A stretch of 32,481 nucleotides of DNA from Candidatus Pacearchaeota archaeon (GTDB lineage Archaea > Nanobdellota > Nanobdellia > Pacearchaeales > GW2011-AR1), in NCBI GenBank assembly GCA_017609795.1, contig JAFCDH010000010.1:1-32481 (forward strand), written 5' to 3'. The notes below the pieces were generated by a model. That model saw nothing but the letters and a program-made list of their open reading frames with translations, searched no databases and was not told the origin of the DNA. Each line of letters begins with the position of its first letter. Position 1 is the first letter of the stretch. Both the position numbers and the translations under genes were made by a program. Below are positions 271-32,432 of the stretch, piece by piece.

Positions 271-385
271 TTATCAAGCTCAATTAATAAATCATCTGAG
301 TTTTCTTTAAATCTATTTTTTCATCTTCAAGGCTTAATCTTCTCATCTCCATCTTATTATATTTTATAAGATATTGATATTTTTT
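271..385 (-). repeat. Intergenic repeat copy E1 (sense on minus strand)
   Basis: Plus strand reads catcttcaaggcttaatcttctcatctccatcttattatattttataagatattgatatttt and abuts the stop codon of ORF 386..2143. Shares taatcttctcatctccat with copy 26441..26540 and ttataagatattgatatt with copies at 8139 and 19164. Confidence 0.7.
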
Positions 386-2143
386 TTAAACCCCTGCTTT
401 AGCTTTTATCTCACTCATAAAAGCATCTCCAATCTTTTGTTTATCACCATCAATTTTCCATTCAATTCCATCATCTGTATATTTTCCAGCAATATTAACA
501 TAAGCACCACAATCTCCAAGAGAATAGCAAATCTCATTCATTTTTTTAGCATAACTTTGTTCTAAACATTCGCAATTATCTTTACATTTTCTTTTTTCTA
601 ATAATCCTTTTTCATAAGTTACAACACAGACTGAATTTCCTAAAGAACAGATACTTGAAGCATCTCCTTCATCCCAGAATTTTAATCCAGCAGGAACATT
701 TGGAACACAAGCTCCTCCGCCAACCTGCACCCCAGAGCCTTTTTCTTCATCTTTATCATCCCCTCCACCAAAAAGCCCGCCTATAAACTCTCCTGTAATT
801 GGAGCTACTGCTTGTCCTGTAATTCCTCCCTGAAACCCTCCTGTACTTCCTCCACTAAAAACAGGATTAGAACCAGCTCCTGCTTCAGCACTTTCAGTTG
901 TTAATCCAGTAAAATGAGCTCCTTCTAACCAATAACAATCTCTTTTATCAGTATTTAAACAATCATCTTCTTCATCTTGGTCAATACAATCAGTCCATCT
1001 ATTAATTCTGCAAGCAGCTTCTATAAATCCTTCTCCAGCACCAGACTCAATAACTCCTTCATAACAAACTTCGTTTCTAAAATCAGCACAAGGTTCAATT
1101 GTTTCTTCACCTGCAATACAAACATGTCTAAAATGTCTGCTTCCTACTGCATCTGCTCCTTCACCAACATTTCCATCATAAATACACCAGCTTTCTCCAT
1201 TTTTATAATCATTTCCATCTTCAGTATTATAACAATTTAAATCAGTACAATAATAATTACCATAACTTGCACTACCTTTTGAACAAATACTTCCTTTAAA
1301 ATAATCACAATTTCCACAAGTTCTTGAACCAGCGTTTGCATTTTCAACACCATAACCACAACTTTCAGATTTATCAATTACTTTCTTCCAATAAGATTTA
1401 TCATTTATTTTAGAACCATCATAAATGTTAGCTTGATTCCCACAAGTATCTAAAAAATAAACTTCATCTTTTCCTTTAATACAAGCAGTCTTAGTAGAAG
1501 GCCCACAATTAGTTGCTAATTCTTCTGCAGAACATAAATAATCTTTAAAAAATTCAGTATCAGAAGTTTGTCCTTCTACTGTTTGTGATTTTAAACATTC
1601 TCCACGAGTTGTAAATCTACAAGTTCTTTGATAATCAATTTCATAAACACAAGCACCTTCATCTTGTGCAGCAGCAAGTGCAATACATGTTGTTTCATCT
1701 CCAACATCATTTCTAAAATTAGTTTCTAATCCAAATAAGCCAGATAATCTTTTGCATCTAGTTAATGTTACAAAACTTGCTTGAGTTCCTAAAACACAAC
1801 AACCAAGATTACATTGAGGAATATTACATTCTGCATCATCAATCCAAGTCCCATTTCCATCATTACAAACTTTCTGAGGAGTATTTTCCATGCACAATCC
1901 TTCTTGAGAATCATAACAACAACCAGATTTACAAAAACTAGTTGCATCACAAGAAGTTGGAGTTTTTCTAAAACCAGTATTACAATTTTCTTCTAATGTA
2001 TTTTGACACCAAGCACCAGATTGAGTTTTTTCACAACATGCATTTGCTGCAGGCCATGTTTGCTCTTGAGCAAACATAAGAGGAACAATAAGCAAATTAA
2101 ATACAATTATTATTCCTAAATATATTTTTGTTTTATTGACCAT
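386..2143 (-). CDS. Secreted cysteine-rich protein P1, paralog of the N-terminal ~500 aa of ORF 3874..7362 (family not recognised)
   Basis: 585-aa ORF with a signal-like N-terminus (IYLGIIIVFNLLIVPLMFA then QEQ) and about 45 Cys. Collinear similarity to the 1162-aa ORF, e.g. NGESWCIYDGNVGEGADAVGSRHFRHVCIAGEETIEPCADFRNEVC vs NGESWCEYDGTIGDGRDVVGSRHVKHLCFMGEERIEPCQDYRNQIC, and SLGDCGAYVNIAGKYTDDG vs SLGDCGGYVNIAGEYTDDG. Confidence 0.8.
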   Translation of the reverse strand: MVNKTKIYLGIIIVFNLLIVPLMFAQEQTWPAANACCEKTQSGAWCQNTLEENCNTGFRKTPTSCDATSFCKSGCCYDSQEGLCMENTPQKVCNDGNGTWIDDAECNIPQCNLGCCVLGTQASFVTLTRCKRLSGLFGLETNFRNDVGDETTCIALAAAQDEGACVYEIDYQRTCRFTTRGECLKSQTVEGQTSDTEFFKDYLCSAEELATNCGPSTKTACIKGKDEVYFLDTCGNQANIYDGSKINDKSYWKKVIDKSESCGYGVENANAGSRTCGNCDYFKGSICSKGSASYGNYYCTDLNCYNTEDGNDYKNGESWCIYDGNVGEGADAVGSRHFRHVCIAGEETIEPCADFRNEVCYEGVIESGAGEGFIEAACRINRWTDCIDQDEEDDCLNTDKRDCYWLEGAHFTGLTTESAEAGAGSNPVFSGGSTGGFQGGITGQAVAPITGEFIGGLFGGGDDKDEEKGSGVQVGGGACVPNVPAGLKFWDEGDASSICSLGNSVCVVTYEKGLLEKRKCKDNCECLEQSYAKKMNEICYSLGDCGAYVNIAGKYTDDGIEWKIDGDKQKIGDAFMSEIKAKAGV

Positions 2144-2212
2144 TTTTTTATATTATAATTTATTTTTTTCTTTATTATATTATTCTTCGGTATTTTAATG
2201 GATGTTTATGTT

Positions 2213-2313
2213 TTATTATCTGAGTAGCTTAAGCTTAATCCCATTTTCTTTAAGTTTTGTTATGAATAGCTTAATCTTCTCAACATTCTCATCCTATGCT
2301 TATAAGATTCTAG
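2213..2313 (-). repeat. Intergenic repeat copy E2
   Basis: Plus strand reads ttattatctgagtagcttaagc...agcttaatcttctcaacattctcatcctatgcttataagattc. The distal 43 nt (2268-2310) match 3020-3062 with 3 mismatches. Confidence 0.75.
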
Positions 2314-2326
2314 TTTATATTTTATC

Positions 2327-2674
2327 TTATTTATTTTTTTCTTTATTTATTATTTCTTTTATTTGGATTTTTAGTTTAGGGATATCTTGTTTAATAACAT
2401 CCCAAACAGTTTTAAAATCAACACCAAAATAATAATGAATCATTTTGTCCCTAATTCCTGCAATCCCTTTCCATTCTACATTAGGATATTTTTTTCTAAA
2501 TTCAGAAGGTATATTTTTTATAGCTTCACCAATAATCTCAATTCTCCTTATTGTAGCATCTTTCAAAAGATTATCCTTTTTGAATTTATTTTTTGTTATA
2601 TTGTTCATACTTTTTATTATCTTATCTATTTCATCCCGGATATGGTTGATAAATACTAAAGAATCCCTTTTCAT
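2327..2674 (-). CDS. hepT: HEPN-domain (DUF86) toxin of an MNT-HEPN pair
   Basis: 115 aa with an RX4H-type motif in GIAGIRDKMIHYYFGVD. Overlaps the upstream nucleotidyltransferase gene by 4 nt (ATGA), the classic MNT-HEPN arrangement. Confidence 0.8.
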   Translation of the reverse strand: MKRDSLVFINHIRDEIDKIIKSMNNITKNKFKKDNLLKDATIRRIEIIGEAIKNIPSEFRKKYPNVEWKGIAGIRDKMIHYYFGVDFKTVWDVIKQDIPKLKIQIKEIINKEKNK

Positions 2675-2964
2675 ATTATTCTTACCTCCTCTGCCAAAAT
2701 TCTTTCTTTTAAATAAGGACTAATCCCATTATATGTTAATAAGTCAACTTTTTTTTGTAAAATCTTTTTAAGAAGCATTTCAAGTTTTACTAAATCAAGT
2801 AAACTAAATCTTTTCCCCTTAACATCAACTAAAATATCAACATCACTATTTTTCTTTTCCTCACCTCTTGCATAACTACCAAATATCCCTGCTTTCTTAA
2901 CTCCATGGTCTTTTAGAGTCTTTACAATTTGTTTTTTTATTTTATTTACATTATTTTTTACCAT
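2671..2964 (-). CDS. mntA: Minimal nucleotidyltransferase (MNT) antitoxin
   Basis: 97 aa with GIFGSYARGEEKKNSDVDILVD, the GS...DxD motif of the pol-beta superfamily. Paired with the HEPN gene. Confidence 0.8.
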   Translation of the reverse strand: MVKNNVNKIKKQIVKTLKDHGVKKAGIFGSYARGEEKKNSDVDILVDVKGKRFSLLDLVKLEMLLKKILQKKVDLLTYNGISPYLKERILAEEVRII

Positions 2965-2973
2965 TTTATATTA

Positions 2974-3063
2974 TTTTTCTATATCTCTATAATCTTAGAG
3001 CTTTGAAGATGACTTGTATAACTTAATCTTCTCAACATTCTCGTCCTATGCTTATCAGATTCC
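2974..3063 (-). repeat. Intergenic repeat copy E3 (mosaic)
   Basis: The proximal half tttttctatatctctataatcttagagctttgaagatgacttgtata equals the proximal half of copy 8139..8238 apart from a 1-nt indel. The distal half equals the distal half of copy 2213..2313. Confidence 0.8.
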
Positions 3064-3066
3064 AAA

Positions 3067-3834
3067 TCACCCAATCAATCCAGCAGGTAATGCCAAACTC
3101 CTTGAGGCAAACATAAATTTATTTTCTTCATAATCTCTATCAGTTAAAATATAAATTGTTGTTCCTTCACCTTGTTTTTTCTTTTCAACTTTTAATGAAG
3201 GATAATACATCATATAAGTCATAGTTTCTGAATCCCCATAACGAGCTTCATAATTTGAGATTGAACTTGCAATCATAACCATATCATATAATTTGGAAGA
3301 CACATCTGTTTTAATAGATTTATATGCTTCGGTAGTTTCTTTTGTAATTCTTAAATCAGCATCTATATTAATAATAACATTATTAGGAACTAAAGAATAT
3401 GAAATCTCAGGATTTTTCATAGAAACACTATAACCTTTTCCTTCAAGCGAAGCTTTAACAGAATCAATGCAATTTTTAATTCTAGGATCAGAATATTTTT
3501 TTATCTCTTGTTCAATTGATTGTTTTAACAAAGGTTTTTGCATTATACAAGTTTTATAATATTCTTCTGTATAACACAAATAATCTACTTTATTTCCTTG
3601 ATATAAATAATAATGTTCAGGATCTAAACTCCCTCCCTGAACTTTCAAAATATTAATAGCTTCTTCAACAGGTTCTTGAGCACATTTTTTAATTTGATTT
3701 ACAGGAGTTTCAGGACTAAAAATAGAAAATATATTTTCCTTTCCAGTTAGTAATATCACTAAAACAATTATAATTGCTATTGCAAGTATTATAAATACTG
3801 TTACTTGTGCGCGCTTACTCTTTTTTCCTACCAT
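3067..3834 (-). CDS. Membrane-anchored or pilin-like small protein A, paralog of ORF 8246..9055
   Basis: 255 aa. N-terminus KKSKRAQVTVFIILAIAIIIVLVILL resembles an archaeal class III (prepilin-like) signal or a TM anchor. Conserved LCYTEEYYKTCIMQKPLL block and C-terminal ALPAGLIG. Lies 39 nt downstream of the giant ORF with no repeat between, so likely co-transcribed. Confidence 0.7.
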   Translation of the reverse strand: MVGKKSKRAQVTVFIILAIAIIIVLVILLTGKENIFSIFSPETPVNQIKKCAQEPVEEAINILKVQGGSLDPEHYYLYQGNKVDYLCYTEEYYKTCIMQKPLLKQSIEQEIKKYSDPRIKNCIDSVKASLEGKGYSVSMKNPEISYSLVPNNVIINIDADLRITKETTEAYKSIKTDVSSKLYDMVMIASSISNYEARYGDSETMTYMMYYPSLKVEKKKQGEGTTIYILTDRDYEENKFMFASRSLALPAGLIG

Positions 3835-3873
3835 CTTTTTATATTTATTTAACTCATCCCTTGTTTATAAATT

Positions 3874-6800
3874 TTAACTAATCAACGAATAACCTTTAAC
3901 TTTTCTTTTACCTCCTTTTTTTCCATATTCATCTTTACATTGGATAATATAAGTTCTTAATTGCCAATTTCCAATATGTTCAATTCCATCTCCACTCATA
4001 ATCTCTGCTTCATCCCAATTAAATTCATCAAATGAATATCTACATTCAGCTTGCTCATCTGTAATAACTTTCATACCACTATCATAATACATTCTTATAA
4101 TTCTAGGTCCTGTACTATCAATCCTTACTCTAAATAAAGTTGAAGTTTCAGCAGTATTTCCAGCAACATCTTCACATCTAATATCAACCTCATATCTTCC
4201 CCTTGTCATTCTATTAAATACTTGATTATGATAATTAGAATCTGTTTCATAAAATCCAATTTCTCCAACTCCAAAGTCATAATAACATTTTGCTTTTCCT
4301 TGTTCAGCACCACCAGAAGTTTTAACTTGTAATTCAACTGTCATAGGTTCAACACCAGAAAAAATCTCAGCATTATTAATTGGTCTAACTTCATCAATCA
4401 TAAGCTCAGAAGCAGATTTTTGCAAAGAGTAAGCATAACTTTCTGTCATTGTATTTTTATTATCAGAAATATCTTGACATTTAATATAAATATCACTATT
4501 CTCATCTAAGTTAGTAAGATTAGTTTCACAAGCCCATCCATATAATCCATAATCTTCTAAATCAGTTTTACAACTCATTTGATTTTCCATTAAATCATAC
4601 CCTCTATCTTCATTACTATATTTACAATTTGAAGGTTCATTAATCCAAATATCTAATTCTTGTTTAGTTTGATTATAACCTATATAACCATTATTTTCAG
4701 GTTCTGTTCTTGCAATTCTTGGAGCAGTTAAATCAGGACCTGGTTCAACACAAGTTCTTATTGTATAACTTGCTGCATTAATAGCTCCATTAATGCTTTT
4801 ACATTTTACATAAAAGTTAATTTCACCTAAAGCTTTTATTTGTTCATCAGTTAAATTATATTGATTTCTAAATGCTTCAGGACTTGGCATAAACATTAGG
4901 TTTGTATGATTTGCTAAATATAAATTACTTCCACCAAAATAATCTGTCATTTGATCATAAGTATGCAAAGGATCTTCACTTATTTTACATTGAGCAGGTT
5001 TATCTGTTTCAATTCCAAATTCAATAGGAGTAAATTCAGGAATACACCCAAGATTATCACTTTCAACTAATCTAAATCCATTTGCACTAATATCATAATA
5101 TTCATAACCTTTTGTCATTGTTCCAAACAAAGGACTTATCCTAGGACTGCTAACATCAGTAGGAGAATTATCAATACATAATTCTTGATCTGTTCCTTTA
5201 TTAATAAACTCACATGTTTGCCCTAAACTTTGACATCTATATTCTGTACATGGAGTTTCAAAAGGATCATTTGCATTACATTTATAACAATTATCCCCAC
5301 CTGTTGGAGCCTGCCATGGCATACATTTAAAATTTACAATTACTTTTTTTGATTTTCCTATTCCTAGGGCGAGCATTGTTATTGCTATTATGATTCCGAT
5401 TATACCTAGAGGTTTTAAAGCAGGAGTTCCCCAAATAGCTAGAGCAGCAACAACTACTCCTCCAGAAACAATCCATGCAGTTGAAGATTTTACTCCAAAC
5501 CCTGTACTTAAAAAATTTTGAACAGACCATATTGCGGCAGCAGTAGCTACTGCATTTCCAAATGCTGTTGTCGCTGTTTTAGTTCCTGTAGCCGCACCAG
5601 CCCCATGAGGTGCACCTGCAGCTGTGATTGCAGAAGAAGCACTTGTGCTAGTCCCAATACTAGGTCCAAGATTACCAATAATTTCTCCAACACCAGTACC
5701 TATATCACCAATAACAGGTAATCCTGCAAGAGTTTTATAAACACCAGACATTAAATCAATTCCTAAAGCTCCTAATCCTGCAACAGCCATTCCAGCAATT
5801 TTTAATTTACTTATTCCTCCACCCTCATATTCAGGATTTTCAGGACTTAACCAAGCTCCTCCACCTAAAAAACTAAGATTCCCAGGCTCAGCAGGGTCTT
5901 GTCCAGGATTATTACGAGCATATTTTCTATATTGTTCACCCCCTATTTTTCCAGCATCAGAACTATATCCATCATCAGTATATTCTCCTGCAATATTTAC
6001 ATAACCCCCACAATCTCCTAAAGAAGTACATAGCTCATTCATTTGTTGTGTAAATATAGATTTTTCACAATCACAATTAGCTACACAGTCCCATCCAACA
6101 AATTTTCTATGTGAAAATCTTTTAACATAAATCACAGTGCATGTTTGGCTTGCCATAGAACATGCCATTTCAGCATTTTTTCCACTTTCTTCACTAGACA
6201 GGTCAAATCCTGCAGGATATTTAGGAACACACATATCAAAATTAAATTTATCAATATTAACTCCTTTAATAATACAATCAGGATTTTCATCACACTCTTC
6301 TCTCATCTTTTCAGTGTTTTCTCTGGTATTATAATCTAAACAACTTCTCCAATTATTAACTCTGCAAGCAGCCTCTGAAAAACTTCCACCCTCATTTAAA
6401 TCAGTTTTAGATTCAACACAAATTTGATTTCTATAATCTTGGCAAGGTTCTATTCTTTCTTCACCCATAAAACAAAGATGTTTTACATGTCTGCTTCCAA
6501 CAACATCTCTTCCATCACCTATTGTTCCATCATATTCACACCAACTCTCTCCATTTCTTTTTCCAATGTCTTCACAATTCACACTTTTACAAGCAGGTTC
6601 TCCTGCAACTAAACCACAATAATTACCAATAAATAAACTACATTCTTCAGCAATATCTTCTTTATTTCCACAAGAATCAAACCAATAAACACTATCTTTT
6701 CCTTCAACACATTCTTTATGGTCTTTAGCAACACAATTAGTTTCTAAACTTTCATCAGAACAAAAAACATCTTTATAAAAATTCCCACCTCTGCCTCTGC

Positions 6801-7362
6801 ATTCTTCACTAGTTATAAACCTACATTCATCATCTAAAATACAAGCACCTTCATCATCTCTTTCAGCTAAAAATATACATTCTATCTCAGTATTAATTTC
6901 AGGCCTAAAATCAGTTTCCAAACCTAAAAATCCTGATTCAACTTCACAATTTCTTTCAGATGTAAAAAAAGCATCATTTCCTAAAACACAACAACCTCTT
7001 GAACATTGGGCAATATTACAAACCTCATTATCAAACCATTGTCCATTACAACTTCTTTTAGGAGTTTTTTCATCACATAATCCTGTTCCTGAACTATAAC
7101 AACAACCTAATTTGCAAAAACTTGTTTCTTCACACATAGTAGGAGCAGATTGAGCTTCTTGTTTACATTCTTCATCTGCAACAAACTGACAAGAACTTCC
7201 ATCATTTGTTTCTTCACAACAAGAATATCCTGGAAGTGTTTGCGCACTAACACTTCCTGTTGCAGAATATACTAAATAACAAAATGCAAAAGTAGATATT
7301 ATTAATATTAAAATCTGAAAATAACTCATCTGCGCTTTTTTACTAAAATATTTTTTTATCAT
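3874..7362 (-). CDS. Giant cysteine-rich surface protein P2 (N-terminal P1-like domain, Gly/Ala-rich hydrophobic segment, C-terminal beta-rich repeats)
   Basis: 1162-aa ORF with a signal-like N-terminus. Residues ~45-500 are paralogous to P1. Residues ~505-680 are Gly/Ala-rich with several hydrophobic helices (e.g. WIVSGGVVVAALAIWGTPALKPLGIIGIIIAITMLALGIG). The C-terminal ~480 aa carry 3-4 repeats of an Ig-like-looking unit, each with a conserved Cys (AQCKIS, SNCKYS, AKCYYD, AECRYS). Confidence 0.85.
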   Translation of the reverse strand: MIKKYFSKKAQMSYFQILILIISTFAFCYLVYSATGSVSAQTLPGYSCCEETNDGSSCQFVADEECKQEAQSAPTMCEETSFCKLGCCYSSGTGLCDEKTPKRSCNGQWFDNEVCNIAQCSRGCCVLGNDAFFTSERNCEVESGFLGLETDFRPEINTEIECIFLAERDDEGACILDDECRFITSEECRGRGGNFYKDVFCSDESLETNCVAKDHKECVEGKDSVYWFDSCGNKEDIAEECSLFIGNYCGLVAGEPACKSVNCEDIGKRNGESWCEYDGTIGDGRDVVGSRHVKHLCFMGEERIEPCQDYRNQICVESKTDLNEGGSFSEAACRVNNWRSCLDYNTRENTEKMREECDENPDCIIKGVNIDKFNFDMCVPKYPAGFDLSSEESGKNAEMACSMASQTCTVIYVKRFSHRKFVGWDCVANCDCEKSIFTQQMNELCTSLGDCGGYVNIAGEYTDDGYSSDAGKIGGEQYRKYARNNPGQDPAEPGNLSFLGGGAWLSPENPEYEGGGISKLKIAGMAVAGLGALGIDLMSGVYKTLAGLPVIGDIGTGVGEIIGNLGPSIGTSTSASSAITAAGAPHGAGAATGTKTATTAFGNAVATAAAIWSVQNFLSTGFGVKSSTAWIVSGGVVVAALAIWGTPALKPLGIIGIIIAITMLALGIGKSKKVIVNFKCMPWQAPTGGDNCYKCNANDPFETPCTEYRCQSLGQTCEFINKGTDQELCIDNSPTDVSSPRISPLFGTMTKGYEYYDISANGFRLVESDNLGCIPEFTPIEFGIETDKPAQCKISEDPLHTYDQMTDYFGGSNLYLANHTNLMFMPSPEAFRNQYNLTDEQIKALGEINFYVKCKSINGAINAASYTIRTCVEPGPDLTAPRIARTEPENNGYIGYNQTKQELDIWINEPSNCKYSNEDRGYDLMENQMSCKTDLEDYGLYGWACETNLTNLDENSDIYIKCQDISDNKNTMTESYAYSLQKSASELMIDEVRPINNAEIFSGVEPMTVELQVKTSGGAEQGKAKCYYDFGVGEIGFYETDSNYHNQVFNRMTRGRYEVDIRCEDVAGNTAETSTLFRVRIDSTGPRIIRMYYDSGMKVITDEQAECRYSFDEFNWDEAEIMSGDGIEHIGNWQLRTYIIQCKDEYGKKGGKRKVKGYSLIS

Positions 7363-7370
7363 TTTTTGTT

Positions 7371-7464
7371 TTTTCTAAAATCTTATAAGCACAATCAAGC
7401 TTTATTATCTGAATAGCTTAATCTCAGTAGGGCATCTCGTCCCACGCTTATAAGATTCTAATAT
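7371..7464 (-). repeat. Intergenic repeat copy E4 with perfect 12-nt terminal inverted repeat
   Basis: aatcttataagc at 7379-7390 and gcttataagatt at 7446-7457. The distal part agcttaatctcagtagggcatctcgtcccacgcttataagatt belongs to the same subfamily as the copies at 8139 and 19164. Confidence 0.8.
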
Positions 7465-8130
7465 TTATTTATTCTCTTCAGCCTCCTTAAAATCTTCTTT
7501 AGTCAATTTAATACAAACATTTACTAATCTAATTAATTCATTACATCTTGAAAAAGGGCTATCTCTTTTTCTTTCAAAATAAGTCCATAGAATTGTTTTA
7601 ATCCCTTTTTTCTTTAATTTTTCAATAACCGGAACAAAATCAGAATCTCCAGAAACTAGTGCAATCCCTTTAACATTATCAGATTCTAAAGGAACACTTG
7701 CCAAATCCATTCCTAAATACATATCAACCCCTTTTTGTTTATAAACAAAAATATTATTAATTTTTAATCTCTGAGTTCTTCCTTCTCTAACAATAATATT
7801 ATCTTTTTTAAATCTAGAAATAAATTTATCATATAATTTCTTTTTTTCATTTTCTTTAATACTAGATTTTTTGCTTTGAAATGGGGGGGCATCATAAAGA
7901 TAAATCTTTTTAACAATACATTTGGTTTTTTTTGCAAGTGTTTCAACAAAATTTCTTACATTATATCTTAAACCTTCATTAAAGAAATGTTTTTTAACCC
8001 TCATTAAATAAGCATTATCAATAAAAACAATAATTTTTAAAAAATCGTCCGGCAACCTCGAAAGATCACCGGGGAGTATCATATTATTATTATCTTTTCC
8101 TTCTTTATAAACTTTTTCATTATATTTCAT
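7465..8130 (-). CDS. NYN-domain (LabA/DUF88-like) predicted ribonuclease
   Basis: 221 aa. IVFIDNAYLM, GVDMYLGMDLA and ALVSGDSDFVPVIEKLKKKGIKT match the acidic-residue pattern of NYN/LabA proteins. Confidence 0.7.
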   Translation of the reverse strand: MKYNEKVYKEGKDNNNMILPGDLSRLPDDFLKIIVFIDNAYLMRVKKHFFNEGLRYNVRNFVETLAKKTKCIVKKIYLYDAPPFQSKKSSIKENEKKKLYDKFISRFKKDNIIVREGRTQRLKINNIFVYKQKGVDMYLGMDLASVPLESDNVKGIALVSGDSDFVPVIEKLKKKGIKTILWTYFERKRDSPFSRCNELIRLVNVCIKLTKEDFKEAEENK

Positions 8131-8138
8131 TTTTTGTT

Positions 8139-8238
8139 TTTTTCTATATCTCTATGAATCTTAGAGCTTTGAAGATGACTTGTATAGCTTAAACTCAGTA
8201 GAACATCTCGTCCTACGCTTATAAGATATTGATATTAT
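8139..8238 (-). repeat. Intergenic repeat copy E5
   Basis: tttttctatatctctatgaatcttagagctttgaagatgacttgtatagcttaaactcagtagaacatctcgtcctacgcttataagatattgatatt. Positions 8186-8236 match 19205-19255 at 49 of 51 positions. Confidence 0.8.
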
Positions 8239-8245
8239 TTACCCC

Positions 8246-9055
8246 CTAAAACCCAGCTGGCAATGCACAGCTTTTAATTGCAAATTTAAATTCTTGATTT
8301 GTTGTTATATCTCTAATTGTGTAAATTGTATCTGAATCTCCTGTTCTAAATTTTTGAATATCATATTTAGGATAAATAATCATAAATCCTAAAATATCAA
8401 AATTGCAATATTCTGCTTCTTGATTTACAATTTCAGATGCAACCTTAGATAAATCATAAAGAGGATGAACCAAGTTTGCTTTAAATTCACTAAAGCTCTG
8501 GACCTTATCTCCCCTAGTCATTTTAAAATCTCTTTTAATATCAACAACAACTTTATTTTTCTGAAGTTTTGTTATTACCCCCATATCCCCCATTTCAATA
8601 TCATATCTTGATTCAAGTTCTGATTTTAAAGATTGAAAACAATTAGAAATTCTTGGTTGTATATAAGTAGTTATTTCCTTTTCCATATGTTCAATTAACA
8701 TTGGTCTTTGGTTTATACAAGGCTCATAATAATTAGCATTATAACATAAAAAAGTTATTTCTTCATTTCTGTAAATCATACTTCCTTTTGGCTCTAAATC
8801 TCCTCCTGTTTCTAATAAAATTTCAACAGCATCTTCAGTTGCTTCACGAGTACAGCTTTCAATATATGATTGAGGATTTGTTTCATCTCCAAAACCAAAA
8901 TCAGGTTTTTTAACTAAAAGAAAAAGTAAAAGCATAGAAACTACTAGTATCAAAGCTAAGATTATGAAGATTGTTACTTGCCCTGTCTTATTTTTAAAGA
9001 GGGGTTGACTTGTCAAGGGGATTCTTCCCCTTACAATTCTCATTTCTTCAACCAT
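8246..9055 (-). CDS. Membrane-anchored or pilin-like small protein B, paralog of ORF 3067..3834
   Basis: 269 aa. KNKTGQVTIFIILALILVVSMLLLFLLV is a hydrophobic N-terminus. Conserved LCYNANYYEPCINQRPML block and C-terminal ALPAGF. Collinear similarity to protein A. Confidence 0.7.
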   Translation of the reverse strand: MVEEMRIVRGRIPLTSQPLFKNKTGQVTIFIILALILVVSMLLLFLLVKKPDFGFGDETNPQSYIESCTREATEDAVEILLETGGDLEPKGSMIYRNEEITFLCYNANYYEPCINQRPMLIEHMEKEITTYIQPRISNCFQSLKSELESRYDIEMGDMGVITKLQKNKVVVDIKRDFKMTRGDKVQSFSEFKANLVHPLYDLSKVASEIVNQEAEYCNFDILGFMIIYPKYDIQKFRTGDSDTIYTIRDITTNQEFKFAIKSCALPAGF

Positions 9056-9315
9056 AAATTCACCCCTTGTTTTTTAATTTCAATAATCTTTTTTTCAATA
9101 AGAAGCCGCATTAAATATCCTTGAGCAGTATTCCAACTAACTTTTAGATGCTTAGCTAACTCAGAACTAGTAATCACCTTCTTTTTCCCAATATAGTTTA
9201 ATATCTTTTTTCTTATCTGTATATTCATAAGTAAATACCTATTAATATTATTATGAATATACATAGATATATAAATCTTTCTAAGAAATTTAATTAGATT
9301 TAAAATATAAATCAA
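9040..9315 (-). CDS. Small winged-helix DNA-binding protein
   Basis: ITSSELAKHLKVSWNTAQGYLMRLLIEKKIIEIKKQG is HTH-like. The true start is probably the internal Met (MNIQIRKKILNY...). Overlaps the start of ORF 8246..9055 by 16 nt. Confidence 0.45.
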   Translation of the reverse strand: MIYILNLIKFLRKIYISMYIHNNINRYLLMNIQIRKKILNYIGKKKVITSSELAKHLKVSWNTAQGYLMRLLIEKKIIEIKKQGVNLWLKK

Positions 9316-11127: not shown

Positions 11128-13599
11128 ATGGAATTTAAAGAAAAAAGAATTAGAGAAATAACTTTTATTTATTATTCTAGGATAGATGTCAGAAAAGCAA
11201 TTTTCAAGTTTTCAAAAAATAGAGAATGTATCCCAAGATATTATGAGGATTTTGGCAAGCGCCCAGATAATTTTCAATATCCTACAGATATTTTAGAGCA
11301 AGTTAAAAAAGGAGCAACATCTTTTCATTGTTCAGAAGAATTATGGAAAGATTCATTAGAAATTTCAAATGAATTATCAGAGCAAGAATTTAATGAACTA
11401 AGAGCAGGTTGGGATTTGCTTTTAGATGTAGATTCCCCTTATTTAGAATATAGCAAAATATACACTCAACTTTTAATAGATATTTTAAAGTTTCATGGAA
11501 TTGAAAATGTAGGAGTAAAATTCAGTGTATCCGGAGATACAGATATTTTAGTTAAACTAGGAAATCAAATAAAACTTGTTAGGATTAATCAAGTGGTAGA
11601 ATTACTAAAAAAAGAGATTAAATTAGAGGTTTTATCTTTAAATAAAAATCAAAAACTTCAATTCTCAAAAATTTATAATTATTTAGAACATGAAGATATA
11701 ATCTATGATATCTTTCATTCTCAAAGTAAAATTCCATTAAAAGTAACAGGTTATCATTCAGTTTTTGTTTGGAAAAATGGAGAAATTATTCAAAAAAAAG
11801 TTTCTGAGATAAATAAAGGAGATTTTCTTATTTCATTCAATACACAAAAAAATCCAATAAGAAAGGACATTAAAGAGATAACAAATAAATTCGAATTTTC
11901 AAAAAATCAGTTTTCTAAAAAAATAGTAGAAAATAAAATACAAGTAACATTAGATTTAATGAGATTAATAGGTTATTTTTTAGCAGAAGGACATACCACA
12001 AAAATAATAAACCAAACAGGATTTACATTTCATAAAAATGAAAGAGAATATATTGATGATGTGGTAAATTTATTAAAAACTATAACTAAAAGAAAAATTT
12101 CAATAAGACACCCAAATCCAAATTCCACACAAATATTAATCCATTCAAAAGAATGGTATAATTTTTTCAAAAATAATTGTGGAGAAAAAAAGAATAAACA
12201 TGTACCTCAATTTGCATGGACTTCCTCTAGAGAATTATTTTTAGAGATGTTAAAAGGATACATAAGAGGAGATGGATACAAAGTAGGAGAATATAGCATT
12301 ATTGTTAAATCTGTTTCAAAGAGATTAATAAAAGAATTCGTTTGGTTATGCAAATTAAATAATATTTCTTGTTCCTTGTCTTCAGAAAAAAATAAACCAC
12401 ATATAATGCCTCAAGGGAATATCTTTCCAGGAAGTTTTGTTTATATTTTAAAAATCCCAAAATCTGAATTATCTTCTTTGGAATTTAATAGAGATAGAAA
12501 TAAATTCTCACCTTGTCCTGGGGATAAAATTTTTCCAATAGACGGGCTTAAAGTAGTTTATAAAAACATAAAACCAAAGATGTTTAATTATCATAGACCT
12601 GAGCAAATGACCTTGAATAAAAAAAGAGCAAATTTAAAAAGAATAAGAAAAGTTTTAGAATGGTTTGAAAAATTTAAATCAGTGGATTATGATGAGGAAT
12701 CTAAAAAAATCATTTCCAATTACTGGAAATTATTTAATTCTGATATAAATGTTGTAGAAATAAATAATATAATAAAAAAAGACAAACAAAAAGTTTATGA
12801 TATTTCTGTTGAAGAAACAGAATCTTTTTTTGGAAATGATTATCCTATATTGTTACATAATTCAGGCTCAAAAGGTTTTCATGTCATCATCCCTTGGACA
12901 GCATTTCCAAAAGAAATTTATGGACAAAAAACAAAAGATATGTTTCCAAAATGGCCAAGAGCAATTTGTGAATATCTTTCTGAAACAATAAGACCTAAAT
13001 TATCTGAAAAAATTTTTGAACAAGAAAGTTTAAAAGAAGTAGCAAAAAAAACAGGAAAAAAACAAGAAGAATTACTAATAACTGAATGTTTAATATGTAA
13101 TAGACCTGCTGTAAAAAAAGAACTTGTAACTTGGTTATGCCCTTCTTGTAAAAATCAACTAATAATGATAAAAAAAAATAAAAAAATACCCAAGTGTCCA
13201 AATGATAATTGCAGAAAAGAGATGATTTCAACTTTTTCTAAAGAAATCTTTTTTTGTGATTATTGTAATATTAGTTCTGATAAAAATCCTGAGAAGTTTG
13301 AAAAAACAAGAGAAAAAACAGAGGTTTTAATAGAAGCAGATTTAATTTTAGTTGCTCCAAGACATTTATTTAGAATGCCTTATAGTCTTCATGAAAAAAC
13401 AGCTTTGTCCTCAATAGTTATAGATAAAAATAAAATTAAGGATTTTCAAATAACAGATGCTAAACCATTTAAAATAGATATAAAAGAGTTTTACCCTAAT
13501 GCAAAGCCAGAAGAAGCAAGAGAACTTTTATTGCAAGCCTTAGATTGGAAAGAGCAAAAACAAAGACAAGAACAGAAGAAATTTTTCCTCCATGTGTAA
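11128..13599 (+). CDS. priS: DNA primase catalytic subunit PriS, interrupted by an intein
   Basis: N-extein carries WDLLLDVDS (DxD). After removal of residues 133-578 the junction reads GVKF-SGSKGFHVIIP, the conserved FSGxxGFH primase motif. Zn-ribbon-like CLICN...CPSC and CPNDNC...CDYC follow in the C-extein. Confidence 0.85.
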   Translation: MEFKEKRIREITFIYYSRIDVRKAIFKFSKNRECIPRYYEDFGKRPDNFQYPTDILEQVKKGATSFHCSEELWKDSLEISNELSEQEFNELRAGWDLLLDVDSPYLEYSKIYTQLLIDILKFHGIENVGVKFSVSGDTDILVKLGNQIKLVRINQVVELLKKEIKLEVLSLNKNQKLQFSKIYNYLEHEDIIYDIFHSQSKIPLKVTGYHSVFVWKNGEIIQKKVSEINKGDFLISFNTQKNPIRKDIKEITNKFEFSKNQFSKKIVENKIQVTLDLMRLIGYFLAEGHTTKIINQTGFTFHKNEREYIDDVVNLLKTITKRKISIRHPNPNSTQILIHSKEWYNFFKNNCGEKKNKHVPQFAWTSSRELFLEMLKGYIRGDGYKVGEYSIIVKSVSKRLIKEFVWLCKLNNISCSLSSEKNKPHIMPQGNIFPGSFVYILKIPKSELSSLEFNRDRNKFSPCPGDKIFPIDGLKVVYKNIKPKMFNYHRPEQMTLNKKRANLKRIRKVLEWFEKFKSVDYDEESKKIISNYWKLFNSDINVVEINNIIKKDKQKVYDISVEETESFFGNDYPILLHNSGSKGFHVIIPWTAFPKEIYGQKTKDMFPKWPRAICEYLSETIRPKLSEKIFEQESLKEVAKKTGKKQEELLITECLICNRPAVKKELVTWLCPSCKNQLIMIKKNKKIPKCPNDNCRKEMISTFSKEIFFCDYCNISSDKNPEKFEKTREKTEVLIEADLILVAPRHLFRMPYSLHEKTALSSIVIDKNKIKDFQITDAKPFKIDIKEFYPNAKPEEARELLLQALDWKEQKQRQEQKKFFLHV
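11524..12861 (+). mobile_element. Intein with LAGLIDADG homing-endonuclease domain inside priS
   Basis: 446 aa. Starts SVSGDTDILV (block A, Ser1), has VTGYHSVFV (TxxH block B) and two LAGLIDADG motifs (LIGYFLAEGHT, LKGYIRGDGY). Ends VYDISVEETESFFGNDYPILLHN followed by +1 Ser. Confidence 0.8.
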
Positions 13600-13922: not shown

Positions 13923-13930
13923 AATCTATT

Positions 13931-14105
13931 CTAATATTTATATTTTATAAAATATTATGAGATGGAGATGATGAGTGTTTTAAGTTAAGTAATAAAAATA
14001 GAATAAGAACTCAAAGCAGGAGTGGAGATTAAGAGATACAATCTTATTTTAAGCTAAACAAATCATCTTCAAAACATAAACATACTTTAAGATTTAAAAA
14101 TTCAA
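13931..14105 (+). repeat. Intergenic repeat copy (sense on plus strand), extended or duplicated
   Basis: ctaatatttatattttataaaatattatgagatggagatgatgag...ggagattaagagatacaatcttattttaagctaaacaaatcatcttcaaaac...ctttaagatttaaaaattc. Same modules as the minus-strand copies, oriented with the downstream sigma-like gene. Confidence 0.6.
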
Positions 14106-14146
14106 ATCAACAAAATTTATTTAAAACCTCTTTTGATTAATAGATT

Positions 14147-14836
14147 ATGGAAAAATCTAGTGAATATTCAATTCCATGCCCATTAGCTCAAAGACATGAA
14201 AATGCAGAAAGAATAAGAAAAGCTATGGCCAATAATCTAAATAATGGTAGATATCTTTATCAAATACTTTTTAGAAGAGCTAGTAAAATAATAAATACAT
14301 CTGATCGTGAAGAGATTGTTTGTAAATTTTTTTTAAATATGGTAACACAAAGACTAGAAACATTCAAATATTTTGTAGATGATAGAAAAAAAATAATTGA
14401 GAATCCTAGATTTATGGCATGGGCTTCTAAAGATATTAGAAATCTATGTGTAGACTATTTAAGAGATAAATATCGCACAAATCAAGCAGAAAATTTTACT
14501 GATTTTGAGATAAGAAAATATGGTAGAAGAAAAAGAAATGAACCTACAGACTCTCCTTTTAAAGATTCATTAGTTCAAAATACTTTTCAACAACCAGAAC
14601 AAAGATTAGCAAACTTAGAAGCAAGACAAGAATTAGGAAAAGCTCTTAAAAAACTTGATAAAAAATATAGAGATGTAATATTAAGATATTATTTTAAAGG
14701 ATTAAAATATGAAGAAATTAGAAAAACATTAAATCTTCCTCTTGGAACTGTAAGAAGCAGATTAAATAAAGCTAAAAAAAATTTAAAAAACCTTCTTTTA
14801 AAAGATGGAGAAATGATAATTAATATGAAGAATTAA
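14147..14836 (+). CDS. Sigma-70 family (ECF-like) protein with regions 2 and 4
   Basis: RFMAWASKDIRNLCVDYLRDKYR is region-2-like. LDKKYRDVILRYYFKGLKYEEIRKTLNLPLGTVRSRLNKAKKNLKNLL is a textbook region 4 HTH. Confidence 0.65.
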   Translation: MEKSSEYSIPCPLAQRHENAERIRKAMANNLNNGRYLYQILFRRASKIINTSDREEIVCKFFLNMVTQRLETFKYFVDDRKKIIENPRFMAWASKDIRNLCVDYLRDKYRTNQAENFTDFEIRKYGRRKRNEPTDSPFKDSLVQNTFQQPEQRLANLEARQELGKALKKLDKKYRDVILRYYFKGLKYEEIRKTLNLPLGTVRSRLNKAKKNLKNLLLKDGEMIINMKN

Positions 14837-16765: not shown

Positions 16766-16817
16766 ATTTAGATTTTTTAATTCAAAAAGGCAAGCCTAAC
16801 TTGAATTTATTTACTTT

Positions 16818-16902
16818 CTAATATCTGATAATTATAAAAAGAAATGAAGATGACGATCTTAATCTATTCATAATAAAGCTTAAAGATTTATAGAGATTCC
16901 AG
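16818..16902 (+). repeat. Intergenic repeat copy (sense on plus strand)
   Basis: ctaatatctgataattataaaaagaaatgaagatgacgatcttaatctattcataataaagcttaaagatttatagagattccag. Aligns with the reverse complement of copy 27159..27282 (ttaatctattcataacacaacttaaagatataataagattccag). Confidence 0.7.
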
Positions 16903-16961
16903 TTAATAACACAAAAACTAAATTTAGTTAAATTTAAAATCTATTTATTCTTATCCTAATC

Positions 16962-18364: not shown

Positions 18365-18637
18365 ATGGAATTTAATGAAGAAAAAATTAAGGCAACTATT
18401 TTATATCATTTAAGAAGAAAAAAAGTTATGGGAGGAGTTCACACTCATTTTGATGCTTTAAGAAGGGGATTTCCATCACATTTAGGAAAAGATATTAAAA
18501 AGATAGCTAAAGATTTAATTAAACAAGGATTAATTTTAACAAAACCAATTACCTATGGATTACAAGTTTATTTAAATAAAGAAAGATTAAATGAAATAGA
18601 AGATTTTATTTTTAAGATTTTAAAATTTAAGTTTTAG
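18365..18637 (+). CDS. Hypothetical small protein (possibly wHTH-like)
   Basis: 90-aa ORF with a basic N-terminal half. No motif confidently recognised. Confidence 0.4.
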   Translation: MEFNEEKIKATILYHLRRKKVMGGVHTHFDALRRGFPSHLGKDIKKIAKDLIKQGLILTKPITYGLQVYLNKERLNEIEDFIFKILKFKF

Positions 18638-19139
18638 AATTAATCTTTTTTCTTCTTTCCCTTTTTTTTAACTTTCTTTTTTTCTTATCTTCACCCTTTA
18701 TTCCTTTTTCAAAACTTTCAATTTTTTCTTCAGCTTCTTTTAACCTTTGAATAAGAATATTTTTTTCCATAAGAGAGACTTTAGCAAGTTCATCATATTT
18801 ATGTATTTTTACACAAAGATTTGAAACAACAGAACTTAAATCAAAATTTTTAAATTCTAATTCTTTTGGCCCAAGAATTTCTACATGAGAAGGAAGCATG
18901 TTTAAAGCAATATCAAATATAAGACTTAAATTATCTGTAATTAACTCAACTTCTGCAAAAGTTGTAAATAAATTCTGAACATCTTTTTTCTCAACAGGTT
19001 TTGGTTCTCTAATTTCTTTTCTAATAATATCAATGCCTTTTTGCTCTCCAAGTTTATCTATAAGCTCACCCAAAGTATTTTTAATATGTTCAGGGGGTCT
19101 TCCCATTATTTCAAAAATAAATAATGCTTTTATTTTCAT
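18627..19139 (-). CDS. Hypothetical protein with coiled-coil region and Lys/Arg-rich tail
   Basis: 170-aa ORF preceded by a repeat copy and the aaccaaaatttaaa leader motif. C-terminus KKKRKLKKRERRKKINSKT. Confidence 0.5.
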   Translation of the reverse strand: MKIKALFIFEIMGRPPEHIKNTLGELIDKLGEQKGIDIIRKEIREPKPVEKKDVQNLFTTFAEVELITDNLSLIFDIALNMLPSHVEILGPKELEFKNFDLSSVVSNLCVKIHKYDELAKVSLMEKNILIQRLKEAEEKIESFEKGIKGEDKKKRKLKKRERRKKINSKT

Positions 19140-19163
19140 TTTAAATTTTGGTTTTTTATATTA

Positions 19164-19256
19164 TTTATCTATATCTTTATGAACTTTTAAGCTATTATTT
19201 GAACAGCTTAATCTCTGTAGAACATCTCGTCCTACGCTTATAAGATATTGATATTT
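19164..19256 (-). repeat. Intergenic repeat copy E6
   Basis: tttatctatatctttatgaacttttaagctattatttgaacagcttaatctctgtagaacatctcgtcctacgcttataagatattgatattt. Confidence 0.8.
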
Positions 19257-19263
19257 ATTAGTC

Positions 19264-22929: not shown

Positions 22930-22947
22930 TTTTGATTTATTCTGAAA

Positions 22948-23032
22948 TTCTACAAGCTCAATCAAGAGACTATCTAAATAACTTAATCTCCTCCTCTTTA
23001 TTTCATAATATTTTATAAGATATAGATATTTT
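22948..23032 (-). repeat. Orphan intergenic repeat copy K (no downstream gene)
   Basis: ttctacaagctcaatcaagagactatctaaataacttaatctcctcctctttatttcataatattttataagatatagatatttt. Lies between the convergent 3' ends of 22630..22929(+) and lysS(-). Confidence 0.7.
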
Positions 23033-24750: not shown

Positions 24751-24854
24751 AAATATTAATATCTTAATGAAATATTATGAGATACATAACAAAAGCTTAA
24801 TTTACTCATAACATAACTTAAAATTCCAACAAAATTCTAGAAATAATATAAACC
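24751..24854 (+). repeat. Intergenic repeat copy L, inverted relative to flanking genes
   Basis: aaatattaatatcttaatgaaatattatgagatacataacaaaagcttaatttactcataacataacttaaaattccaacaaaattctagaaataatataaacc reads in the sense orientation on the plus strand, although both neighbours are minus-strand genes. Confidence 0.7.
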
Positions 24855-26440: not shown

Positions 26441-26540
26441 ATTTATATTATTATTTTATCTGGAATTTTAAGCTTTATTATCTGAGTATCCTAATCTTCT
26501 CATCTCCATATCACCTTACGCTTATAAGATATTAGCATTT
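26441..26540 (-). repeat. Intergenic repeat copy E7
   Basis: ctggaattttaagctttattatctgagtatcctaatcttctcatctccatatcaccttacgcttataagatattagcattt. Confidence 0.75.
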
Positions 26541-27158: not shown

Positions 27159-27282
27159 TATATTATTTTTATTCTGGAATCTTATTATATCTTTAAGTTG
27201 TGTTATGAATAGATTAACCTTTTTCCATTATCTTAATCTTATCATCTTTATATCATTATATACATTAAGATATTGATAATTT
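27159..27282 (-). repeat. Intergenic repeat copy E8
   Basis: tatattatttttattctggaatcttattatatctttaagttgtgttatgaatagattaacc...atcatctttatatcattatatacattaagatattgataattt. Confidence 0.75.
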
Positions 27283-27544: not shown

Positions 27545-27631
27545 TTTATATTATTTTTTGGAATCTAATAAGCTCATATAAGCTTCACATATCATCTTTA
27601 TCTCATTATATTTCATAAGATATTAGTATTT
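27545..27631 (-). repeat. Intergenic repeat copy E9
   Basis: tttatattattttttggaatctaataagctcatataagcttcacatatcatctttatctcattatatttcataagatattagtattt. Confidence 0.7.
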
Positions 27632-27636
27632 CTATT

Positions 27637-28299
27637 TTATTTCACTCCCTCAACATCTTCTTTTACATCTTCTTTAATCTCTTTATCAGCTTGTTTTTGA
27701 GTAATCTCCTTTTCTTCAACTTTATCTTCTATTTTAGTTATATCTTTAGCTAAATCTTTTTCAGTTTTTTCAATTTTCTCTTCAATTTTATTATCTTTAA
27801 TACTATCCAAAGCCTCTTTATTTTCAGTAGTATGTAGCTGTTTGTCTTTAGACATATCAGTTAATTTTCCTTTATCTTCTATTTCAATACTTTCTAAAAA
27901 CTCTCTCCCTTTTTTAGTTAATCTTCTTCCAGCTTTTTCCCCAAGTTCACTATATTTTTCTAAAAATTCAGCAGATTCAGCTTGTTGTAAGATTACACGA
28001 ATAATTTTTCCACTTGCTTTCTTAAATCTCTCAGGTTTCATTCCTCTATTTTTTTTACTCCCATATCTTGTTCTTAGTTTATTAACTCCGACTAATTTAT
28101 GAATATAAATCTGTCTTAAAATACTTGCAGCTCTTTTATACCAGAAATCCTTTTCTTGAGAAGGTCTTTTTTTTGCAACTCCTGATTTAACAAATGCAAC
28201 CCATTCAGGCTGTTTAAACTCAGGAATTTCTTTTAAAGCAAAAGCTAATTGCTTATTATATTCATTTGAAGGCATTTCATATACTGGATTTGATTTCAT
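27637..28299 (-). CDS. rps19e: Ribosomal protein eS19 with Lys/Glu/Asp-rich C-terminal extension
   Basis: PEWVAFVKSGVAKKRPSQEKDFWYKRAASILRQIYIHKLVGVNKLRTRYGSKKNRGMKPERFKKASGKIIRVILQQAE is the eS19 core, and the last ~70 aa are charged low complexity. Confidence 0.9.
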   Translation of the reverse strand: MKSNPVYEMPSNEYNKQLAFALKEIPEFKQPEWVAFVKSGVAKKRPSQEKDFWYKRAASILRQIYIHKLVGVNKLRTRYGSKKNRGMKPERFKKASGKIIRVILQQAESAEFLEKYSELGEKAGRRLTKKGREFLESIEIEDKGKLTDMSKDKQLHTTENKEALDSIKDNKIEEKIEKTEKDLAKDITKIEDKVEEKEITQKQADKEIKEDVKEDVEGVK

Positions 28300-28344
28300 T
28301 TTAAATCTTGGTTTGGATCATAACCTTTTCAAAAGGTTTGTTTT
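28300..28344 (-). promoter_or_regulatory. Conserved leader with palindrome, shared with the RuBisCO leader
   Basis: Sense strand aaaacaaaccttttgaaaaggttatgatccaaaccaagatttaaa runs directly into the eS19 ATG. Palindrome aaccttttcaaaaggtt at 28322-28338. Confidence 0.45.
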
Positions 28345-28362
28345 CATTTTTTTGATGTTATT

Positions 28363-28458
28363 TTTTATCTATATTTTTATAGGCTCAATCAAGCTTTGTT
28401 ATGTTTAGCTTAATCTTTTCCTCTACATATCATTATATCCATTAAGATATTAGTTTAT
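28363..28458 (-). repeat. Intergenic repeat copy E10
   Basis: ttttatctatatttttataggctcaatcaagctttgttatgtttagcttaatcttttcctctacatatcattatatccattaagatattagttt. Confidence 0.7.
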
Positions 28459-32382: not shown

Positions 32383-32388
32383 TTTATC

Positions 32389-32432
32389 TTTAAATTTTGG
32401 TTTGGGTCAAGCCTTTTTAAAAGGGTTGTTTT
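32389..32432 (-). promoter_or_regulatory. Conserved leader with palindrome, shared with the eS19 leader
   Basis: Sense strand aaaacaacccttttaaaaaggcttgacccaaaccaaaatttaaa, then gataaa and the ATG. Palindrome cctttttaaaagg at 32412-32424. Confidence 0.45.

Follow-up and report, generated by a model that had tools for sequence, protein, structure and literature searches.

Repeats around accessory genes in a Pacearchaeota surface-protein locus probably belong to a family of promoter-like intergenic elements

Introduction

Short non-coding sequences that recur in the spacers of operons are familiar from several groups of bacteria. The repetitive extragenic palindromes and interspersed mosaic elements of enterobacteria (REP/BIME), the BOX elements of pneumococci and the Correia elements or miniature insertion sequences of Neisseria (Correia/NEMIS) are dispersed intergenic repeats with a modular or mosaic build, and Correia elements carry promoter-like boxes and inverted ends. 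In the genomes of DPANN archaea, transposable elements of the miniature inverted-repeat type (MITEs) are reported to be abundant, at 105–146 per Mb (PMC11602168). Here we describe an intergenic element of ~100 nucleotides (nt) from a DPANN archaeon, found in a contig of a Candidatus Pacearchaeota genome (JAFCDH010000010.1, assembly GCA_017609795.1, positions 1–32,481; this whole stretch is called the window). The G+C content of the window is 27%, the sequence is archaeal, and the top protein matches are to metagenome-assembled genomes of Pacearchaeota and Nanoarchaeota. Copies of the element surround two accessory units, a gene for an NYN/LabA-like protein and a toxin–antitoxin pair of the MNT–HepT (MNT-HEPN) type, which lie among genes for two pilin-like proteins (A and B) and two cysteine-rich proteins (P1 and P2).

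A preliminary description of the window, made from its sequence, regarded both units as cassettes that had been inserted by recombination within a spacer and were still bounded by direct repeats. Comparison with related loci (labelled L002–L056) leads to another view, to which we assign a probability of about two in three (0.68): a promoter-like intergenic repeat has been dispersed and homogenised between its copies, and accessory genes come and go independently of it. The repeats around NYN and MNT–HepT would then be ordinary copies of a lineage-specific modular element and not the ends of cassettes.

A modular element in the spacers of the window

The spacers were aligned in the sense orientation of their genes, and an nhmmer model was then used to find copies. 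The 'distal' and 'proximal' modules noticed before are the two halves of one intergenic element. Read from the stop codon that ends the upstream gene as far as the following ATG, its order is ATATC.ATATCTTATAAG, a variable stretch of 20 nt, GATGAGAAGATTAAGCT, ~12 nt, AAAGCTTAA and a second TATA-like box. The first TATA-like box, ATCTTATAAG, directly follows the upstream stop codon, and AAAGCTTAA forms a short palindrome with the GATGAGAAGATTAAGCT core. The second box is found ~26–40 nt ahead of the ATG in compact copies and farther upstream where spacers are longer; ahead of NYN, P2 and MNT the distance is ~26–28 nt.

The window holds 12–13 copies by nhmmer and one that was recognised by eye (13923–14146), and 12 of these 14 have the orientation of the flanking genes. 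They fill most spacers between co-directional genes, including those of housekeeping genes (Table 1). With at least 13 copies present, a co-directional gene in this region normally has one on each side. The distribution of the modules is not tied to cargo, as copies are found in front of the L31e, L39e and S19e ribosomal protein genes. Since copies of the spacer element stand ahead of most genes, ribosomal ones included, the repeats do not mark mobile cassettes. The family was seen only in close relatives (L002/L003, L004, L007, L045 and L053), and nhmmer did not find it in ~35 more distant species.

The presence of the element differs between orthologous spacers, namely B–P2, P2–A, wHTH–B (wHTH being a winged helix-turn-helix gene) and A–P1, as seen from the window, L002, L004, L007, L053 and L056. 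In L004 a copy separates the leader of A precisely from its ATG, whereas this spacer is without a copy in the window; L004 carries a single element at B–P2 and another at A–P1, and a distal-only piece ~25 nt ahead of the start codon of B. In L002 there is no spacer between B and P2. The partial copy just past P1 in the window has an orthologue in the spacer between P1 and its downstream neighbour in L002, and L005 has the promoter-like region alone. An inverted copy is present in L053 (1748–1824), in a spacer orthologous to window positions 16766–16961, whose window copy is in the sense orientation.

Most likely, the element supplies or tunes the promoter of each downstream gene. Such a role is suggested by the TATA-like boxes, by the spacing of ~26 nt between the proximal box and the ATG of NYN, P2 and MNT, by the distal-only piece before B in L004, and by the likeness of the boxes to the conserved TTTATAAA-type boxes ahead of element-free genes. 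The promoter-like TTTATAAA box of A, within the 39-nt spacer at 3835–3873, is kept in relatives.

Regarding other readings of the element, conservation is found in sequence boxes and not in structure. RNAalifold gave 0 consensus pairs across 12 copies, and of eight copies folded as DNA only the one before P2 beats shuffled sequences (hairpin z = -3.96), by virtue of its terminal inverted repeat; the other seven do not. A palindromic CTTATAAG-type box occurs at both element ends, with a perfect 12-bp repeat only in the copy at 7363–7464 and weak matches elsewhere. Cores of the attC type (RYYYAAC / GTTRRRY) are absent from both strands of nine element-bearing spacers. A structured RNA or an attC site was rejected for these reasons, and C/D-box small RNAs or small open reading frames (ORFs) were discarded because, judged by eye, neither boxes nor ORFs are conserved between copies. 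An Rfam scan of the window returned nothing relevant, the window has no tRNA genes as integration sites, and the search for a recombinase or transposase, proposed earlier as a check on the cassettes, found none by Pfam in the tested ORFs of the 32-kb window, Hjc being the sole DNA-junction enzyme. No published description of this family was found in a literature search.

Subtypes and probable exchange between copies

The repeats pointed out in the preliminary description are real. The Y modules ahead of MNT and NYN (2974–3020 and 8139–8186) agree at 47 of 48 positions with one indel, the X-type flanks of MNT–HepT (3020–3062 and 2268–2310) at 40 of 43, and the Z-type flanks of NYN (8186–8236 and 7415–7465) at 44 of 51. 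The motif CAACATTCTC occurs at 2281 and 3033 only, as had been stated. These similarities are far above chance, with 0 matches expected for the 44-nt Y pattern.

What was not borne out is the link of subtypes to the accessory genes. The Z subtype is not exclusive to the NYN flanks; CATCTCGTCC is present three times, and a third Z-type copy (19205–19255) is 49/51 identical to the pre-NYN repeat, closer than the flank partner of the latter. Z also recurs at another locus in L053. For the Y module, uniqueness to NYN and MNT–HepT holds at ~98% identity, and fails when the diverged Y-type sequences at 19140–19190 and ~14040–14090 are counted. In relatives, a Y-type module directly precedes P1 (L004), and a 23-nt identical Y core stands ahead of a membrane-protein gene in L045, which is from the genome of L002. 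A metagenome scan for the Y module, in a set that did not include the source sample, gave 3 matches, and a scan of viral sequences gave no match. The single A–P1 spacer of L004 has its best inter-genome match in the pre-MNT element of the window, the Y part included, for which reason Y is probably the resident module next to P1.

Pairwise comparison of the distal modules (91 pairs) gave a median identity of 67%. The four highest values belong to pre-NYN with the copy at 19140 (91%), pre-P1 with pre-MNT (91%), pre-P2 with pre-NYN (89%) and pre-P2 with the copy at 19140 (89%), so that both flank pairs are in the top four. Copies next to each other exceed pairs taken at random in similarity (permutation p = 0.04). 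Furthermore, the distal types X, Z and W combine with Y or non-Y proximal types, giving modular mosaics in the spacers. The pre-NYN copy, for example, has a Z half that matches the copy at 19205–19255 and a Y half that matches pre-MNT (47/48), joined at the conserved GATTAAGCT core, and the pre-MNT copy consists of X distal and Y proximal halves. Z-type copies are 90–95% alike within the window and 80–85% between the window and L053, where one of them is at an unrelated locus; the comparison of a 90% pair in the window with 80–85% across genomes covers 40 nt, over which pairwise identity fits ancient constrained duplicates and recent conversion alike. The L053 copy after B is closer to the L004 copy after A than to its own positional orthologues.

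The mosaics, the likeness of neighbours and the presence/absence variation at orthologous spacers suggest that copies exchange sequence between sites, by gene conversion or copy-and-paste and most strongly between neighbours, or that copies are repeatedly inserted. Such an exchange would yield same-subtype flanks and near-identical Y modules.

Accessory genes in a conserved gene string

Along the minus strand PCNA is followed by a NUDIX-like gene and then by wHTH, B, NYN, P2, A, MNT, HepT and P1; the identities given earlier for HepT, MNT, NYN and wHTH were confirmed by Pfam. The order PCNA-(wHTH)-B-P2-A-P1-P3 is conserved across Pacearchaeota (40 genome loci and ~12 metagenome contigs), with ~45 related loci displaying it, and ~35 species, including the close relatives L002 and L004, keep it without NYN or MNT–HepT. 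The proposal of an ancestral B-P2-A-P1 string that was interrupted by these genes has thus held up. This conserved string of surface-protein genes usually lacks NYN and MNT–HepT, which are therefore accessory genes at two of its junctions. Their G+C content (24–26%) does not set them apart from the window mean.

Other relatives carry other cargo. L002 (8593–9918) has an opposite-strand NUDIX gene and an HD gene at the P2/A junction, and L038 (5747–6217) a GNAT acetyltransferase gene at B/P2. P1 (386–2143) and the N-terminal half of P2 (3874–7362) are paralogues with several DNA blocks that are still 71–80% identical; many direct repeats in the window are due to these blocks.

NYN has graded homologues in Pacearchaeota, at 80, 78, 74 and 73% identity. 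In L053/L054 it is present at B/P2 (78% identity) with elements on both sides, and in L053 the two flanks reach only 68% identity in their distal modules. In L056, which is from the same sample as the window, an 80% identical NYN follows B after 2 nt and overlaps P2 by 4 nt, with zero elements. The identities of B, P2 and PCNA group L053 with L002 and L004, which lack NYN, and leave the window and L056 outside, and the NYN identities of 78–80% track the divergence of the lineages. Because these protein identities place L053 nearer to the NYN-less loci and NYN divergence matches, NYN at B/P2 is probably ancestral to the group of the window, L053, L056, L002 and L004, which would imply one ancient insertion and loss in L002/L004. 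In L055 (5725–13421) a 73% identical homologue shares a tight cluster with an MNT-HEPN pair and two proteins of the SLFN_AlbA_2/HATPase_c_4 type, a defence-island-like setting that is unlike the surface-protein string.

The MNT–HepT pair has a different history. Its MNT translation carries a GSYARGE..DVD motif, and the adjacent genes have the domains and motifs of the HepT/MntA family. A search of the whole protein database gave no HepT homologue above 59% identity, and hence no close relative from which a donor context could be read. Among the close relatives, the window alone has a pair at A/P1; it is absent from L002, L004, L009 and L047. In L050, A is followed after 4 nt by MNT–HepT, which overlaps P1, with zero flanking repeats. 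L049 and L050 have 99.9% identical DNA and identical A proteins, and differ by a clean 638-bp MNT–HepT indel at A/P1 (L049 5021–5024, L050 1455–2092), where the stop codon of HepT and a rebuilt start codon of P1 overlap. L051 (209–5270) has three MNT-HEPN pairs, at P2/A, at A/P1 and after P1. Further pairs are found at P2/A (L013, L025), at P1/P3 (L008, L036, L040) and after P1 (L049); in total at least 10 lineages, L053 also among them, have pairs at junctions of the string. Since the pairs of other lineages are only 47–73% identical to that of the window, they are probably independent arrivals. In the fetched loci, 12 of 13 MNT-like ORFs lie inside or right beside the string. Enrichment is only suggestive, because a formal test counted 8 in and 5 out (p = 0.37), with four string-adjacent cases misclassed by truncated contigs. 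The string is a recurrent landing site for MNT-HEPN pairs, which enter and leave with or without the element.

Table 1 Elements and genes of the string in the window
Feature	Position	Strand	Details
Partial element copy just past P1 stop	327–381	-	upstream of the next gene's conserved promoter-like region
P1, Cys-rich secreted protein, conserved string member	386–2143	-	585 amino acids (aa); orthologues after A in ~30 loci
Pre-P1 spacer with composite copy	2144–2326	-	X distal 2268–2310, duplicated GATTAAGCT core, A-rich tail; nhmmer 2248–2314
HepT-like HEPN RNase toxin	2327–2674	-	115 aa; RDKMIH (Rx4H) motif; PF01934, E = 3.5e-27
MNT nucleotidyltransferase antitoxin	2671–2964	-	97 aa; overlaps HepT by 4 nt; PF01909, PF18765; PADLOC PDC-S09
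Full copy before MNT	2965–3066	-	X distal 3020–3062 and Y 2974–3020; nhmmer E = 5e-13
A, pilin-like, class-III-like signal, highly conserved	3067–3834	-	255 aa; 754 homologues
P2, giant Cys-rich surface protein	3874–7362	-	1162 aa
Full copy before P2	7363–7464	-	Z distal 7415–7465; 12-bp terminal inverted repeat AATCTTATAAGC/GCTTATAAGATT; nhmmer E = 4e-18
NYN/LabA-like protein	7465–8130	-	221 aa; PF01936, E = 1e-12
Full copy before NYN	8131–8245	-	Z distal 8186–8236 and Y 8139–8186; nhmmer E = 2e-17
B, pilin-like paralogue of A	8246–9055	-	269 aa
wHTH protein, head of string	9040–9315	-	PF13412; kept in relatives
Long copy before sigma-70 region 4 gene	13923–14146	+	internal insertion, diverged Y-type middle; alignment, Pfam
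Copy before gene for 331-aa surface protein	16816–16914	+	nhmmer E = 3e-13
Third Z-type copy, before 170-aa ORF (18627–19139)	19140–19263	-	Y-like proximal half; nhmmer E = 1e-18
Copy directly after stop of aspartyl-tRNA synthetase (AspRS)	22933–23030	-	nhmmer E = 3e-14; Pfam
Copy opposite in orientation to flanking genes	24752–24842	+	nhmmer E = 6e-5
Copy before DNA-alkylation-repair (AlkD-like) gene	26447–26539	-	nhmmer; Pfam
Copy before ribosomal protein L31e gene	27164–27279	-	nhmmer; Pfam
Copy before ribosomal protein L39e gene	27551–27630	-	nhmmer; Pfam
Copy before ribosomal protein S19e gene	28359–28454	-	nhmmer; Pfam

Other features of the window

A 27-nt motif with a small hairpin, AACCCTTTCAAAAAGGCTTGACCCAAA, is present at 32401–32427 (minus strand), with a diverged copy at 28312–28345. 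It recurs in L002 (19962–19988), L004 (9868–9894), L053 (8751–8777 and 3813–3839) and L014 (4702–4728), hardly varying between these genomes even though their proteins share only ~70% identity. The motif is located just upstream of start codons, of the RuBisCO and S19e genes in the window and of P2 in L053, and looks like a conserved 5' leader module; it has no Rfam match. Another leader, AAACCAARATTTAAA, at 19137–19154 and 28297–28314 (minus strand), leads without a gap into the start codons (ATG) of both the 170-aa ORF and the S19e gene, and a related, non-identical sequence (32370–32403) stands ahead of the RuBisCO large-subunit gene (31120–32382, minus strand), near the right-hand end of the window. 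The 229-aa archaeal protein encoded at 14147–14836 (plus strand), which has the long element copy upstream, contains a clear sigma-70 region 4 helix-turn-helix (Sigma70_r4_2, E = 4e-13). An 823-aa ORF (11128–13599, plus strand) contains an intein with a LAGLIDADG homing-endonuclease domain; its homologue in L055 has a weak DUF87 match.

Origin of the flanking repeats

The preferred explanation, an element that is homogenised between copies and accessory genes that move independently, would separate two processes. Copies would exchange sequence within the genome, and accessory genes, MNT-HEPN pairs above all, would enter and leave the junctions of the string in many lineages, whether the element is present or not. 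Direct repeats on either side of a gene could favour its loss, as the single B–P2 element of L004 suggests. Several observations weigh against this explanation. The neighbour pairs with the highest similarity in the window (91% and 89%) are precisely those around the two accessory units, which by a rough estimate, not a computed test, is unlikely to happen by chance, and the neighbour effect is weaker among the copies at ribosomal protein genes (71–83%). At the site of element–NYN–element in the window and in L053, L004 has a single element, as direct-repeat recombination would leave it. The loss of NYN in L002/L004 is read from pairwise identities of three proteins and not from a full phylogeny. 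Finally, the window MNT–HepT pair is recent, and a duplication of spacer sequence at its insertion is conceivable; for NYN such a duplication is unlikely.

Transposition of the element itself can also be envisaged, and we regard it as possible, though clearly less probable. A MITE-like element with promoter-like boxes would have transposed into the boundaries of genes that were already in place, its flanking copies later promoting deletion, and the likeness of copies within the genome would reflect recent transposition instead of gene conversion. This would explain the presence/absence pattern at orthologous spacers, including the precise position of the L004 copy before A, the NYN gene of L056 without elements and the single element at the NYN site of L004. 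The terminal inverted repeat (TIR)-like ends, the inverted copies (window 24752–24842, L053 1748–1824) and the high density in a group whose genomes are MITE-rich (PMC11602168) are consistent with it as well. However, MITEs do not usually show so strong an orientation bias, most copies have weak TIRs, no transposase was seen in the window, and the mosaics are easier to explain by recombination between copies. Nor could a target-site duplication be defined: comparison of the filled P2–A site of L004 with the empty sites of the window and L002 gives a doubtful AATAAA in AT-rich sequence.

A more limited proposal concerns MNT–HepT only. A recent insertion just upstream of the P1 start would have duplicated ~45 bp of the resident spacer (X distal and core), so that the 40/43 repeat is a true insertion footprint and the NYN flanks are not. 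The absence of the pair from L002, L004, L009 and L047 fits this, as do the X pair, 91–95% identical and unique in the window, the composite pre-P1 spacer with its doubled core, and the resident appearance of the pre-MNT element. We nevertheless consider it unlikely, as no mechanism is known for a 45-bp target duplication that comes with a new proximal region, the insertions that L050 and L051 have at this junction lack such a repeat, and the homogenisation seen elsewhere could yield the same picture.

The cassette model, in which proximal module, gene(s) and distal module move as one unit that integrates by recombination inside a resident spacer element and leaves same-subtype direct repeats, has become very unlikely. 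In its favour are the top-ranked distal pairs around both units, the mosaic joins at the GATTAAGCT core, the single elements at B–P2 and A–P1 in L004, and cargo types (toxin–antitoxin pairs, GNAT, NUDIX) like those of integron cassettes. Both observations that the preliminary description had named as refuting it were made: the same genes lie at the same junctions without repeats, NYN in L056 and MNT–HepT in L050, and the modules also precede genes of other kinds, those for ribosomal proteins included. Moreover, the NYN flanks of L053 have diverged, NYN appears older than the lineage splits, Y was probably resident ahead of P1 in L004, HepT has no close copy in the database, no recombinase was found in the 32 kb, and no attC core or conserved hairpin in the element copies tested. 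The data lend no support to the possibility of a new cassette system. A broader idea, that the elements are substrates of an integrase-independent 'plug-and-play' system of DPANN archaea in which recombination at the GATTAAGCT core inserts, swaps and excises accessory genes, is just as improbable. It would give small genes (toxin–antitoxin, NYN, GNAT) at operon junctions a ready-made promoter and would account for the mosaics, for the close similarity of the flank pairs and for the 'scar' of a single element in L004.

A dense, lineage-specific and promoter-like repeat family could help to define promoters and operons in uncultured Pacearchaeota, and there is evidence here that repeat copies are exchanged between loci inside tiny genomes. 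The uptake of MNT-HEPN pairs at a conserved surface-protein operon, including gain or loss at the strain level (L049 versus L050), may bear on the stabilisation or regulation of that operon.

Comparison with known systems

MITEs are familiar, as are modular repeats dispersed through intergenic DNA, and the Pacearchaeota element is a new family of that kind. Like REP/BIME, BOX and Correia/NEMIS, it is ~100 nt long, non-coding, present in many copies and confined to operon spacers, and it is composed of interchangeable modules with lineage-specific variants. It differs in that its host is a DPANN archaeon, the conserved boxes resemble archaeal TATA boxes, a conserved stem-loop is missing and nearly every copy points in the direction of the genes; for the element neither a transposase nor a target duplication was identified in the window. 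With REP/BIME in particular it has the mosaic modularity in common, but not the GC-rich palindromic stem-loop unit.

The MITEs of DPANN and other archaea are likewise small, non-autonomous in appearance, intergenic, dense and variable at orthologous sites, some with TIR-like ends, and the element agrees with them in being multi-copy, non-coding and polymorphic in its insertions. Its TIRs are weak or absent in most copies, and the orientation bias is strong. At ~13 copies per 32 kb its density is well above the 105–146 per Mb of the MITE census (PMC11602168).

Integron cassettes with their attC sites, known also from archaeal integrons (PMC9668308), resemble the locus in that small accessory genes such as toxin–antitoxin pairs and acetyltransferases each adjoin a repeat. 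In contrast to integrons, the window has no IntI or other recombinase, attC cores or conserved hairpin, the element also precedes the L31e, L39e and S19e genes and adjoins the AspRS gene, and the same genes occur at the same sites without repeats (L056, L050).

As in other HepT/MntA systems (HEPN-MNT, type VII), HepT (PF01934) comes after MNT (PF01909) and overlaps it by 4 nt, and the Rx4H and GS...DxD motifs are present. The flat and sporadic phylogenetic distribution is typical of mobile toxin–antitoxin genes. The pair in the window is itself ordinary; what is unusual is that such pairs have lodged repeatedly and seamlessly in one conserved operon across many Pacearchaeota.

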